DNA from: Thermoleophilia bacterium
GTDB taxonomy: Bacteria; Actinomycetota; Thermoleophilia; Gaiellales; Gaiellaceae
Assembly: GCA_017882605.1 (NCBI GenBank)
Contig: JADGPE010000002.1
Coordinates: 9,381 to 73,380, forward strand
Direction: 5' to 3'
Length of the DNA: 64,000 nt
Below, in pieces: positions 10,794-17,467 of this stretch; the stretch's first letter is position 1, and every line of letters begins with the position of its first letter. Made by a program: the position numbers and the translations under genes. The notes below the pieces were generated by a model. The model worked only from the letters and a program-made list of their open reading frames with translations, was not told where the DNA came from and searched no databases.

Positions 10794-10807
10794 GCGGATT
10801 TTCCCGC
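10794..10807. promoter_or_regulatory. candidate operator, motif copy a (GCGGATTTTCCCGC)
   Basis: Imperfect palindrome 136 nt upstream of ppdK start; shares the 11-mer TTTTCCCGCAG with copy b. Confidence 0.4.
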
Positions 10808-10835
10808 AGGTCGCCCGTGGCCGCCCGGGCACGCC

Positions 10836-10861
10836 GAGGCGGCCGCCGGAGCGGCCGCCTC
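10836..10861 (-). terminator. hairpin just downstream of gap (terminator/attenuator or RNA-stability element)
   Basis: GAGGCGGCCGC / loop CGGA / GCGGCCGCCTC, perfect 11-bp stem; no U tract. Confidence 0.4.
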
Positions 10862-10876
10862 GTGGGAGTGGTCTCG

Positions 10877-11899
10877 TCAGACCGCGTGTGCGACGGGCAC
10901 GAGCACCCGCTGCGCGAGCTCGAAGAGTCGCGTCGAGTAGCCCCACTCGTTGTCGTACCAGGAGACGACCTTGACCTGTGTCCCCCCTGCGACCAGCGTG
11001 AGGCCCGAGTCGAAGATCGACGAGAACCGCGACTTGATCACATCCGACGACACGAGCGGCTCATCGCTGTACTGGAGAATCCCCTCGAGCTCGTCGGTGG
11101 CGGCCGCCGCGGCGAACAACGAGTTGACCTCGTCGACCGAGGTGGGACGCTCGACGTCGACCGTCAGGTCGACGAGGGAACCGGTGAGCACCGGCACACG
11201 CGTGGCAAAGCCCTGCAGCTTCCCGGCGAGCTCGGGGATGACGAGCCCGATCGCGGTCGCGGCGCCGGTCGAGGTCGGCACGATGTTCGCGGCCGCGGCA
11301 CGGGCGCGGCGCAGGTCCTTGTGGGGCAGGTCGACCAGGCGCTGATCGCCCGTGTAGGCATGAATCGTGGTCATGACCCCGTGACGGATCCCGAGCCCTT
11401 CGTGCAAGACCTTCGCGACAGGCGCCAGACAGTTGGTCGTGCAGGAGGCGTTCGAGACGATGCTGTGCGCCAGCGGGTCGTACGTGTCGAAGTTGACGCC
11501 GAGAACGAGCGTCGCATCGATGTTCTTGCCCGGCGCAGAGAGGATGACCTTCTGCGCGCCCGCGGTGATGTGCGCGCCCGCGTCGTCACGTGCGCGGAAC
11601 TTGCCGGTGCACTCGAGCACGACCTCGGCCGAGACCTCCGCCCACGGGATCGCCTGTGGAGCCGTCTCGGCGAACACGGGGATCCGAGTGCCGTCGACGA
11701 CAAGCGCACCCTCCTCGACCTCGACAACACCGGGGAATGGGCCGTAGAGCGTGTCGCGGCGCAGCAGGTGAGCGAGCGTCGCGACGTCGGCAACGTCGTT
11801 GATCCCGGCCCATTCGATCTCGGCGCCGCTCTCATGGGCCGAGCGAAACGCGCAGCGTCCAACGCGGCCGAATCCGTTGATCCCCACACGAACGGTCAT
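10877..11899 (-). CDS. gap: type I glyceraldehyde-3-phosphate dehydrogenase
   Basis: INGFGRVGR, SNASCTTNCLAP active site, WYDNEWGYS; SD AAAAGGAGAAG before ATG 11899. Confidence 0.93.
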   Translation of the reverse strand: MTVRVGINGFGRVGRCAFRSAHESGAEIEWAGINDVADVATLAHLLRRDTLYGPFPGVVEVEEGALVVDGTRIPVFAETAPQAIPWAEVSAEVVLECTGKFRARDDAGAHITAGAQKVILSAPGKNIDATLVLGVNFDTYDPLAHSIVSNASCTTNCLAPVAKVLHEGLGIRHGVMTTIHAYTGDQRLVDLPHKDLRRARAAAANIVPTSTGAATAIGLVIPELAGKLQGFATRVPVLTGSLVDLTVDVERPTSVDEVNSLFAAAAATDELEGILQYSDEPLVSSDVIKSRFSSIFDSGLTLVAGGTQVKVVSWYDNEWGYSTRLFELAQRVLVPVAHAV

Positions 11900-11920
11900 T
11901 TTGCTTCTCCTTTTGAGCTT

Positions 11921-12373
11921 CTAGGTGAGTGCGGGTGCCGGCGCGGGCTCCGGCACGATGAGGAGCGGACGTGTCGCATCGCCGATCAAGGCCCGGGAGG
12001 TGCTGCCGAGCAGGAACCGCTTGATACCGGTCAGGTGACGAGATCCGACCACGATGAGGTCGACGTCGAGATCGTCCGCGACCGCGGAGATCTGCGTCGG
12101 CGGATAGCCCACCAGCAACTCCGTCTTGCTGGGCACGCCGAGTTTCTCGGCCTTGGCGCAGGCGGCGATCAACAGTTCGGTTTGCGCCCGCTCGGGCACG
12201 CGATCGGGCTTCCCCTCCCCGTGAACGAACTGCTCTCCGACGATCGAGACCACGTTCACGAACACGACCTCCGACGCTTCGTCGACGGCCAGCGCCAGAC
12301 CCTGTTCGACCGCTGCCTGAGACGCCGGGGTGTCGTCGATCGCGATCAGGATGCGTTTCAGCTTCCGTGTCAT
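11921..12373 (-). CDS. universal stress protein
   Basis: ILIAIDDTPAS...DLIVVGSRHLTGIKRFLLGSTS UspA motifs; ATG 12373 with AAAGGAGG SD. Confidence 0.85.
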   Translation of the reverse strand: MTRKLKRILIAIDDTPASQAAVEQGLALAVDEASEVVFVNVVSIVGEQFVHGEGKPDRVPERAQTELLIAACAKAEKLGVPSKTELLVGYPPTQISAVADDLDVDLIVVGSRHLTGIKRFLLGSTSRALIGDATRPLLIVPEPAPAPALT

Positions 12374-15593: not shown

Positions 15594-15603
15594 CACTCCT
15601 CCC

Positions 15604-16938
15604 TCATGCCGTGGTCATCAGGTGCAGCGTGCCGAGAATTGGAGCGAGCACGTCCTCCAACGTCGGATGCCCGACCTCTTCGAGGTCGTAGGTGGCGTGC
15701 CTGATCGGGTGTCGCGACTCGATCAGCCTGCTCAGGTCGATCGGCGTCCCGGTGACGACCACATCGCAGTCGGTCGCGTTGATCGTCTCCTGCAGGTCGT
15801 GGAGCTGCTGACCCGAGTACCCCATCGCCGGCAGGACGTTGACCAGGTGCGGCCACCGCTCGAGCGTCTCCTTGATCGTCCCGACCGCGTACGGCCGGGG
15901 ATCCACCAGGGTGGCCGCGCCGGCGTTGCGGGCGGCGACCGTGCCCGCCCCGAACGCCATGCCTCCGTGCGTGAGCGTCGGCCCGTCGTCGACGACGAGC
16001 ACACGCTTGCCGAGGACGGCGTCGCCGGCCTCCAGGTGCACCGGTGACTTCGCATACACCACCCTCGCGGCTGGATTCACGCGCTCGACGTCGGCCACGA
16101 CGCGCAGGACATCTGCGGGCTCGGCCGTGTCGACCTTGTTGACGACGACGACGTCCGCCATCCGGAGATTGACCTCACCCGGGTGGTAGGTCAGCTCGTG
16201 GCCTGCCCGCAGGGGATCCACGATGACGATGTGCACGTCGGGTGTGTAGAACGGGAAGTCGTTGTTGCCGCCGTCCCAGATGATCACGTCGGCCTCCGCC
16301 TGCGCCTGCGCCAGGATCTCGGCGTAGTCGACTCCGGCGTACATGACCATTCCCAGCTCGACCGGCGCCTCGTATTCCTCGCGTTCCTCGAGCGTGGGGC
16401 TCGCGGCGTCGATGTCGGCCAGCGAGCCGAAGCGCTGCACCCGCATCGCCTCGAGGTCGCCGTACGGCATCGGGTGCCGCACGAGCGCGACCGACAGGCC
16501 GTGCGAGCGCAGGATGCGACCGACCGCGCGGGTCGTCTGGCTCTTACCGCAGCCGGTTCGGACCGCGGTGACGGCGATCACCGGCTTGACGCTGTTCAGC
16601 ATCGTCGAGCGGGGGCCGAGCAACGTGAAGTCGGCGCCTGCCGCAAGCGCGATCGACGCCTTGTGCATGACCACCTCGTGTGCGAGGTCGGAGTACGCGA
16701 GCACGACCTCGTCGACGTCCTCGCGCAGGATCAGGTCGGCGAGCTCGTCCTCCGGGACGATCGGAATGCCTCTTGGATACAAGGGGCCGGCCAGCGACGG
16801 CGGGTAGAGCCGGTCGTCGATCCCTGGAATCTGCGCCGCCGTGAAGGCGACGACGTGCTGGTCCGTGTCTTCGCGAAAGACCGTGTTGAAGTCGTGGAAG
16901 TCGCGCCCTCCGGCGCCCATGATCACGACGCGTCTCAT
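15604..16938 (-). CDS. COG2403-type predicted P-loop GTPase / cyclic 2,3-diphosphoglycerate synthetase-like protein
   Basis: N-terminus VVIMGAGGRDFHDFNTVFRED..VVAFTAAQIPGI, P-loop AVRTGCGKSQTT, RHPMPYGDL; family assignment from memory of this fold family, not searched. Confidence 0.75.
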   Translation of the reverse strand: MRRVVIMGAGGRDFHDFNTVFREDTDQHVVAFTAAQIPGIDDRLYPPSLAGPLYPRGIPIVPEDELADLILREDVDEVVLAYSDLAHEVVMHKASIALAAGADFTLLGPRSTMLNSVKPVIAVTAVRTGCGKSQTTRAVGRILRSHGLSVALVRHPMPYGDLEAMRVQRFGSLADIDAASPTLEEREEYEAPVELGMVMYAGVDYAEILAQAQAEADVIIWDGGNNDFPFYTPDVHIVIVDPLRAGHELTYHPGEVNLRMADVVVVNKVDTAEPADVLRVVADVERVNPAARVVYAKSPVHLEAGDAVLGKRVLVVDDGPTLTHGGMAFGAGTVAARNAGAATLVDPRPYAVGTIKETLERWPHLVNVLPAMGYSGQQLHDLQETINATDCDVVVTGTPIDLSRLIESRHPIRHATYDLEEVGHPTLEDVLAPILGTLHLMTTA

Positions 16939-16958
16939 GATTGCTCCTTTTCGCTGCG

Positions 16959-17345
16959 TCAGATGACGGCGGAGTCGGGCCTCACTCTCGAAGCCACAGG
17001 TGTGATCTCCAACGAGGTCGAGCCTGGTTGCTCGCTGCGAGGAGCACGAAGCACCACGATGCCGTCCGCGATTCGAACGGTGAGGTGGGTCGTGTCGGCT
17101 CCCTCGGGCAGGTGGAAGTCGCGACGGAACTCGGTCGGCCCGCGCTCGTCCTGCAGGTAGTGGTGATCGCCGGCATGCCCGAAGCGATGCCCGCTGACGC
17201 TCACCACGGGCCCCGACACGGACACGGCGAGCTCGTCCGGGCCGAACCCGGGAGCCTCGAGCTCGACCGTCACCGCTCTCTGCGTCAGATACACGTCCGC
17301 GCAGGGCAGACGCTGCGACGCGTGGCCGTTCGTCTCGATCGACAT
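16959..17345 (-). CDS. Hsp20/alpha-crystallin family small heat-shock protein
   Basis: ACD-like core VTVELEAPGFGPDELAVSV...FRRDFHLPEGADTTHLTVRIADGIVVLR; ATG 17345 with GAAGGAGG SD. Confidence 0.85.
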   Translation of the reverse strand: MSIETNGHASQRLPCADVYLTQRAVTVELEAPGFGPDELAVSVSGPVVSVSGHRFGHAGDHHYLQDERGPTEFRRDFHLPEGADTTHLTVRIADGIVVLRAPRSEQPGSTSLEITPVASRVRPDSAVI

Positions 17346-17454
17346 GGAACAGCCTCCTTCGAGTCTACGGCGCCATCGTCGGAGGACAGGTCGCACATCG
17401 CATCAGTGGCTTCGCTGACGAACCGTGCGGATCGCCGCTGATGCAGGCGATCGT

Positions 17455-17467
17455 GCGGGTTTCCCGC
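17455..17467. promoter_or_regulatory. candidate operator, motif copy c (GCGGGTTTCCCGC)
   Basis: GCGGG-N3-CCCGC inverted repeat in the 225-nt divergent region between hsp20 operon and membrane-protein gene. Confidence 0.4.

Follow-up and report, generated by a model that had tools for sequence, protein, structure and literature searches.

The response regulator DevR (DosR) of Mycobacterium tuberculosis also controls the alpha-crystallin HspX. Together with OsdR of Streptomyces coelicolor it recognizes a palindromic box of 16-20 bp, AGGGCCGATCGGCCCT, GGGAC/GGGCC-N4-GTCCC/GGCCC, and the regulons of both contain universal stress proteins (USPs) and ppdK (PMC5069765). DosR contacts the bases through K179, K182 and N183 (PMC4082495). 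ComA of Bacillus subtilis, a regulator of the GerE type, binds TTGCGG-N4-CCGCAA (PMC4797271), inserting R183 into the major groove (PMC3246441). Here we describe a palindromic element that recurs in a stress island of a Thermoleophilia bacterium of the family Gaiellaceae. The island lies in a stretch of 64,000 nucleotides, hereafter the window (GCA_017882605.1, JADGPE010000002.1). To judge from its conservation between genomes, the element is very probably a genuine transcription-factor operator. That it serves as operator for the adjacent two-component system, whose regulator is encoded at 18651-19292 and whose kinase at 19289-20914, seems likely from gene linkage and from the form of the half-site.

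What is the extent of the element, and how many copies are there? The window (contig C87:9381-73380) belongs to a metagenome-assembled genome (MAG) of 2.1 Mb in 109 contigs, with 69% GC and a completeness of 82.6%; its contigs are labelled C below, and the loci of relatives L. A preliminary description of the window had listed four related copies: GCGGATTTTCCCGC at 10794-10807 (copy a), GGGGTTTTCCCGC at 12426-12438 (copy b), GCGGGTTTCCCGC at 17455-17467 (copy c) and GGGGATTTCCCC at 14475-14486 (copy d). All four are there, as is the 11-mer TTTTCCCGCAG common to copies a and b, which starts at 10799 and 12430. Our gene calls agree that the four are non-coding and lie 37-136 nt from start codons. 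Copy a is 136 nt from the start of ppdK, copy b 53 and 85 nt from those of two USP genes, copy c 110 nt from that of hsp20 and 104 nt from that of memb (a membrane-protein gene at 17571..18215, forward strand), and copy d 37 nt from that of a 48-codon open reading frame (ORF). However, the motif first described, real as it is, is merely the core of a longer palindrome, cTGCGGgWWWcCCGCAr, and the count of four missed a further copy at 7613-7629 and a weak candidate at 23607-23621. The full motif is a 15-bp palindrome, TGCGGg-WWW-cCCGCA. Its perfect form is copy c (TGCGGGTTTCCCGCA, 17454..17468), which stands between the hsp20-p444-OTC unit on the reverse strand and memb on the forward strand. 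Scored with a position weight matrix (PWM) of 17 columns, copy c reaches 21.3, the best score in the genome.

Is the element conserved where its surroundings are not? The region upstream of memb was aligned from 11 genomes of the same genus, and a single contig scan with the memb alignment then yielded 80 loci, from MAGs of many Gaiellales and of related lineages, 78 of them with sufficient upstream sequence. A PWM score of at least 13 was found upstream of memb in 52 of the 78, always 87-141 nt before the start codon. Real sites score 13-24, while control upstream regions (23, taken before housekeeping ppdK paralogues) score 6.1 or less. The information per column is 1-2.6 bits across palindrome positions 2-16 and ~0 bits in the flanks. 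The left half is conserved at T 92%, G 92%, C 76%, G 100% and G 100%, the right half at C 100%, C 100%, G 100%, C 86% and A 100%. Genomes differ in the centre of the memb-upstream site, which is either TTT or AAA; this inversion, together with the sharp information boundaries, is as expected for a dyad read by a dimer. Across 842 kb of the relatives' loci, of which 16% is intergenic, 92 PWM matches are intergenic and 8 coding. The earlier claim of a shared operator is supported, in that each of the four copies, and that at 7613-7629 too, has an orthologous site in relatives and the memb site is conserved across dozens of species; memb is the motif's most conserved target. The matrix was trained in part on closer orthologous sites that it afterwards scored, and their scores are not independent of that training; no such dependence affects the distant loci or the sharpness of the boundaries. 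We consider the cross-genome conservation decisive as evidence above chance.

Could the palindromes instead be no protein site at all, but GC-rich hairpins resembling terminators or repetitive extragenic palindromes, or chance matches in AT-poorer intergenic DNA? GC-only TGCGG-N5-CCGCA halves are indeed common and not enriched outside genes, some permuted palindromes with a GC stem and an AT loop are enriched in intergenic DNA as well, and copy a lies 68 nt downstream of gap. But a stem of 6 bp closed by a 3-nt loop does not make a terminator, and none of the copies was called as one. The TTT/AAA inversion keeps the DNA dyad but not the orientation of a transcript, and extended repeat flanks are absent (~0 bits). 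Moreover, the site is conserved while its flanks diverge, and it keeps a fixed distance to -10-like hexamers upstream of genes. We regard hairpins or chance as highly improbable.

How far does the element stand out within this one MAG? The string GGDWTTTCCC, a pattern picked post hoc, occurs three times in the window against 0.17 expected, and none of 100 shuffles reaches three. Genome-wide, six of the 10 best and nine of the 19 best PWM hits are intergenic, where 9% of the MAG is intergenic by our own gene calls; the enrichment is modest, and the remaining four of the 10 best lie inside genes. Nine of the 10 best intergenic hits are upstream of a gene start. When the columns were permuted with the palindrome preserved, seven of 300 permutations did as well (p ~0.02); those resemble the real motif (for example TCGGGGATAATCCCCGA). 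The GC-only pattern TGCGG-N4/5/6-CCGCA with mismatches was rejected, giving thousands of matches, ~90% of them coding, and no enrichment. Since the GC halves are uninformative, the AT centre is needed for specificity, and the 17-column matrix was therefore adopted. The 11-mer of copies a and b has a third genomic copy at C90:1105, inside a 2-oxoacid:ferredoxin oxidoreductase gene, which we take to be a chance match because it is coding (it encodes DFPAE).

Two ppdK paralogues occur in the MAG, the island copy (8073-10658, reverse strand of the window) and one at C82:5492-6391. The operator is found only at the island copy and at its one close orthologue (90% identity, in a single close relative). 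The C82 gene is the copy conserved across the genus and has no site, and none was found before 23 other ppdK genes, housekeeping paralogues 55-61% identical. The site-bearing copy being confined to a close pair, the ppdK family serves as a negative control rather than as a test of conservation.

Where do the sites lie with respect to the promoters? Counted from the end of the promoter-proximal half-site, a -10-like hexamer follows after 20-22 nt, a distance constant in at least 12 promoters. The hexamer is GATGGC for both memb and the OsmC-like gene, GATTCC for usp2, GATGCT for ppdK and GAAGGT for the 48-codon ORF; several kinase and regulator promoters of relatives have TACAGT or TAGAGT. Copy c faces GATGGC at 21 nt on the memb side (17490-17495, forward strand) and GATCCG at 20 nt on the hsp20 side (17428-17433, reverse strand); this single site appears to serve two divergent promoters. 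Copy b (12424..12440, CCGGGGTTTTCCCGCAG), in which the distal half is degenerate, stands between the usp1-gap operon on the reverse strand and the divergent usp2 on the forward strand, with the GATTCC of usp2 (12460-12465, forward strand) 20 nt past CCGCA. It is kept in L001 and L002 as GGGGTTT(T)CCCGCAG; in L002, GGGGTTTCCCGCAG is followed after 20 nt by TATTGC, and in L001 the hexamer is GATTGC. Copy a (10792..10809, TGCGGGAAAATCCGCG on the ppdK strand) has a 6-nt spacer, where copy c and almost every orthologous site have 5 nt; the GATGCT of copy a lies 21 nt downstream (10767-10772, reverse strand). The orthologue of copy a in the closest relative, CTGCGGGAATACCGCGG, scores 18.7 and occupies the same place before the island ppdK.

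Copy d (14474..14488, TGGGGATTTCCCCGA) has the variant right half CCCGA and is followed after 22 nt by GAAGGT (14511-14516), 6 nt before the ATG at 14523 of the 48-codon ORF. Its orthologues in L001, L030, L032 and L033 keep GGGGTTTCCCCGATG, the spacing, and a NANNNT hexamer 6-7 nt ahead of the ATG; that of L030, TGCGGGTTTCCCCGA, has a perfect left half. A paralogous site of identical layout is found at C105:15486. The additional copy at 7613..7629, a PWM match reading CCGGGGTTTGCCGCAG on the reverse strand, lies upstream of the OsmC-like gene (7143-7556, reverse strand, assigned to the OsmC family), with GATGGC 20 nt downstream (7588-7593, reverse strand); the orthologous site in L001 is GGGCGGATTTACCGCAG, followed after 20 nt by GATGGC. 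The tentative copy at 23607..23621 (TGCGGAGAACTACGT), well formed on the left and degenerate on the right, falls below the PWM reporting threshold. It is upstream of another USP gene (23703-24188, forward strand), which is divergent from the operon of acs, kinase and regulator, and GATTCA (23644-23649) follows it after 22 nt.

In several kinase and regulator promoters of relatives, at copy d and its orthologues, and at C105:15486 (Asp-Al_Ex permease) and C35:1155 (gcvT), the hexamer stands 6-9 nt ahead of the start codon, from which leaderless or nearly leaderless mRNAs are predicted. Such mRNAs may be common in this lineage. NANNNT close to a start codon is seen at 14511-14523 of the window, at C105:15520-15532, near 1195-1210 of C35, and in L015 and L052.

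The memb promoter holds a third half-site-like element, TTCCGCA (17475..17481, forward strand), 6 nt downstream of the palindrome. As TTCCGC(A) it recurs at the same position in relatives with moderate conservation, profile positions 23-25 carrying 0.55-0.9 bits. It sits between the expected -35 and -10 positions and recalls RE3/RE4 of ComA, from which it differs in orientation and position. Read as a -35 element, GTTCCGC would lie just 9-12 nt from the -10-like hexamer, and that reading was set aside.

If the hexamer is taken as a -10 element at -12 to -7, the centre of the palindrome falls near -41, which is the position of a class II activator. Neither the profile nor a sigma-70 scan revealed a -35 consensus at these promoters, and a scan of window positions 7400-18400 for the sigma-70 consensus returned no promoter in 11 kb that hold at least seven transcription units. 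The promoters of the lineage, or at least those of the island, appear not to follow TTGACA-17-TATAAT. A promoter of the extracytoplasmic function (ECF) type, with GGAAC on the opposite strand or CCGCA as the -35 element, was rejected on two grounds: the spacing is 21-22 nt against 16-18 nt, and the left half-site is conserved symmetrically.

These distances suggest the following mechanism. A dimer of the phosphorylated regulator would bind the 15-bp palindrome, whose half-site centres are ~10 bp apart, about one helical turn. The site would take the place of the -35 element, its centre near -41 giving a class II activator layout in combination with GATGGC, GATTCC, GATGCT or GAAGGT, or with TANNNT in relatives. 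A palindrome between divergent genes would serve both promoters, copy b those of usp1-gap and usp2, copy c those of hsp20-p444-OTC and memb. The regulon would comprise the USPs, hsp20, gap, the island ppdK, the OsmC-like peroxiredoxin, the small membrane peptide and the conserved membrane protein. The operon of kinase and regulator itself bears a site in about a third of the related lineages.

Does the regulator activate or repress? As a repressor it would block RNA polymerase by occupying the -35 region, and its inactivation would release the genes from repression. The site does overlap the expected -35 region, a position compatible with repression too. Yet the missing -35 consensus is typical of activator-dependent promoters, one palindrome at equal distance from two divergent promoters fits activation, and the closest characterised relatives, DevR, OsdR and ComA, activate from comparable sites (PMC5069765, PMC4797271). 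We therefore favour activation by the regulator with some confidence, and consider the same regulator acting as a repressor unlikely.

Which protein would read the element? The regulator (18651..19292, reverse strand) is a NarL/FixJ-type response regulator, with a REC domain and a GerE-type helix-turn-helix (HTH), and the kinase (19289..20914, reverse strand) has the architecture GAF-GAF-HisKA_3-HATPase. The recognition helix SVRTAETHRAHIM is invariant among orthologues that are 67-97% identical overall, an invariance that, on the sequences compared, matches that of the operator. In 43 of the 80 loci memb adjoins the pair. Among 33 distinct kinase-upstream regions, namely those not directly preceded by an acyl-CoA synthetase gene, 10 have a strong site directly upstream of the kinase against ~0.04 expected; in one additional species a site stands immediately ahead of the regulator gene (L015 and L063, which are the same contig). 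The kinase-upstream sites suggest that the two-component system regulates itself; within this window autoregulation is only weakly suggested, by the candidate at 23607. The preliminary description had named the adjacent NarL-type regulator as the candidate binder, and gene linkage, the kinase-upstream sites, the invariant helix and the identity of TGCGG with the ComA half-site (PMC4797271) all speak for it; we think it the probable reader.

The first GAF domain of the kinase, GAF-A, matches the heme domains of DosT and DevS (E 1e-38 against DosT 2VZW; E 1e-35 against 2Y8H). In the alignment to 2VZW the HPxM histidine and the LYLT tyrosine are in register; we take them to be the heme ligand and the distal tyrosine, respectively, as in DevS and DosT. 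By this analogy the signal is probably O2, NO, CO or the redox state. No NCBIfam equivalog covers the regulator; MctR, which matches it best, is under its cut-off.

The MAG and its relatives also encode HTH-only LuxR-type proteins of 67-69 residues (C68:3605-3811, L011:6516-6719 and L014:6447-6656). Their recognition helices, SVRTAEMHRANAM, SVRTVESERARLM and VSLRT(V/I)E..RAR(L/I)MRKL, are close to that of the regulator, and in L011 and L014 the HTH-only gene lies between an operator copy and memb. At these sites they may compete with the regulator or act as co-regulators. Might such a paralogue, or a global regulator from an unrelated family such as CRP/FNR, whose members likewise act at ~-41.5, be the true reader of a real operator? 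Paralogues with these helices exist, two of their genes are directly downstream of a site and upstream of memb, and close to half of the loci lack a regulator orthologue within 3 kb of memb; nor is the class II position specific to one family. The boxes of CRP and FNR, however, are built as 5-6-5 or 5-4-5 with TGTGA or TTGAT halves, and these do not match the element. The sites directly upstream of the kinase/regulator operon in 10 of 33 loci fit autoregulation, the HTH-only paralogues are more likely to modulate the operator than to replace the regulator, and the half-site is one used by a regulator of the GerE type (PMC4797271). Another reader is, in our judgement, rather improbable.

Several observations weigh against the adjacent two-component system acting through this element as an operator. 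In this MAG alone the enrichment is modest (p ~0.02), four of the 10 top PWM hits lie in genes, and the training of the matrix included some of the orthologous sites it then scored. A spacer that varies between 5 and 6 nt among the copies is not usual with a rigid dimer, and one half is degenerate in copy b, as one is in copy d. Hexamers of the GATGGC type do not have the final T of TANNNT, and their assignment as -10 elements is itself inferred. The operon of acs, kinase and regulator in the window is preceded by the weak candidate at 23607 only and by no strong site. Finally, the HTH-only paralogues, with a very similar helix, could bind the same sites.

Which genes would the two-component system control through the operator? 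Around the copies, gene calls with Pfam and NCBIfam identify phosphoketolase, the OsmC-like protein, ppdK, gap, two divergent USP genes, an ABC-2 transporter, the 48-codon ORF, OTC, a P-loop protein (p444), hsp20, memb, the NarL-type response regulator and the GAF-GAF-HisKA_3 kinase; the island further contains a fusion of GNAT and ADP-forming acyl-CoA synthetase, in the acs-kinase-regulator operon, and the additional USP gene. Those behind sites in the window are the OsmC-like gene, ppdK, usp1-gap, usp2, the 48-codon ORF, hsp20-p444-OTC and memb. The usp2 unit possibly includes the ABC-2 transporter, and the memb unit a downstream unknown gene. The memb protein has ~130 residues between hydrophobic N- and C-terminal segments and finds no family match in Pfam or NCBIfam; the contig scan confirmed at least 530 relatives of it.

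Elsewhere in the MAG the same layout of site and hexamer precedes genes for 2-oxoacid:ferredoxin oxidoreductase, gcvT, an Asp-Al_Ex permease and a ferritin-like protein (C44:7162). The first three are probable regulon members by this layout. The oxidoreductase site is a perfect 16-bp palindrome with an AA centre, TGTGGGGAACCCCGCA (C90:915-930), 38 nt upstream of the alpha-subunit gene, and TATAAC follows it after 23 nt. The site at C24:19305 precedes a gene for a GltD-like Fe-S flavoprotein and has no clear -10 hexamer. In relatives, site-preceded genes encode USPs, the acyl-CoA synthetase fusion and gap and, as named by eye, flavodoxin-like and HAD-like proteins and malic enzyme. The second-best PWM hit of the genome (CTGCGGGTATGCCGCGG, score 17.8; C92:36921-36937) lies in 766 nt between convergent gene calls. 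No -10-like hexamer accompanies it; the site might belong to a gene or RNA that the gene calls missed, or serve as a decoy.

Why might this matter? Gaiellales and Thermoleophilia are abundant soil actinobacteria, almost entirely uncultured. To our knowledge nothing is known of their gene regulation, and a literature search for Gaiellales together with DosR found no paper linking the two. The footprinted operator and its predicted regulon, which takes in USPs, Hsp20, gap, ppdK, the OsmC-like protein, ferredoxin-dependent oxidoreductases and an orphan membrane protein, would be the first testable regulatory circuit for the group and would suggest how these bacteria answer oxygen or redox limitation in soil. 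It would also indicate that a DevS-type sensor and a DosR-like gene set can persist while operator and recognition helix change, and the coincidence of its half-site with that of ComA should help to work out the rules by which NarL/GerE-type regulators recognize DNA.

How, then, does the element compare with the boxes of known regulators? The 7-2-7 sites of NarL read TACYYMT-N2-AKRRGTA, C-rich and then G-rich. Boxes of the NarL/LuxR type resemble the element in being inverted repeats of 15-20 bp for a GerE-type dimer, but they run in the opposite polarity, and their half-sites bear no relation to those found here.

The resemblance to ComA is closer. The half-site core, TGCGG/CCGCA, is identical; both elements are inverted repeats for a dimer of tetrahelical HTH domains, predicted in our case, upstream of the RNA-polymerase site; and both have an extra, degenerate half-site-like element downstream, RE3/RE4 there and TTCCGCA here (PMC4797271). 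The regulator has Arg at the position of R183 and Glu three residues later (E186), positions that correspond to K179 and K182 of DosR. There are differences nonetheless. Where the ComA box has a 4-nt spacer, the element has one of 5 nt (6 nt in copy a) with a conserved g-WWW-c centre, and in the MAG scan GC halves with the ComA-type 4-nt spacer showed no intergenic enrichment. The outermost T of TTGCGG is not conserved, Y187 of ComA is Thr here, and the C-terminal domains are 39% identical. The partner kinase is by sequence a cytoplasmic sensor of the heme-GAF type, not ComP under ComP/ComX quorum control, the predicted regulon is one of stress and central metabolism rather than a quorum response, and the host belongs to the Actinomycetota, not the Bacillota.

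With DosR and OsdR the likeness is of another kind. The element is not a DosR box, as had been remarked at the outset: the consensus is TGCGGgWWWcCCGCA, and two of the three DosR contact residues differ (PMC5069765, PMC4082495), K179, K182 and N183 being R, E and T in an alignment to 3C3W. The half-sites are TGCGG as against GGGAC/GGGCC, and 3 nt, not 8, separate the G triplet from the C triplet. A DevR/OsdR-like GGGNC-N4-GNCCC was tried as the operator and rejected, its 49 genomic matches being mostly coding and none in the island. At the positions where it departs from DosR, the regulator looks ComA-like in the residues that matter most. What is shared is the system around the box: a GAF-A of the DosT/DevS heme-domain type, by sequence match; a NarL-family regulator with a palindromic operator whose centre is AT-rich or flexible; several sites clustered around the regulator gene; autoregulation, suggested here in part of the lineages; and a gene set of USPs, an alpha-crystallin-type Hsp20 and ppdK, which are predicted targets in our case (PMC5069765).

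We conclude that the locus would work like a DevRS/OsdKR system, but with a NarL-family operator that has ComA-type half-sites and a 5-nt g-WWW-c spacer and governs a DosR-like regulon. A bolder version is conceivable, though we think it doubtful: that Gaiellales have joined a heme sensor of the DosS/DosT type to a regulator with a ComA-like code, the DosR-type regulon being rebuilt on a new operator, with the operator-preceded HTH-only paralogues, which share its recognition helix, as built-in competitors or anti-activators. If true, the rebuilt regulon would be a natural instance of operator rewiring across a whole regulon, and would offer a handle on the recognition code of GerE-type HTH domains.

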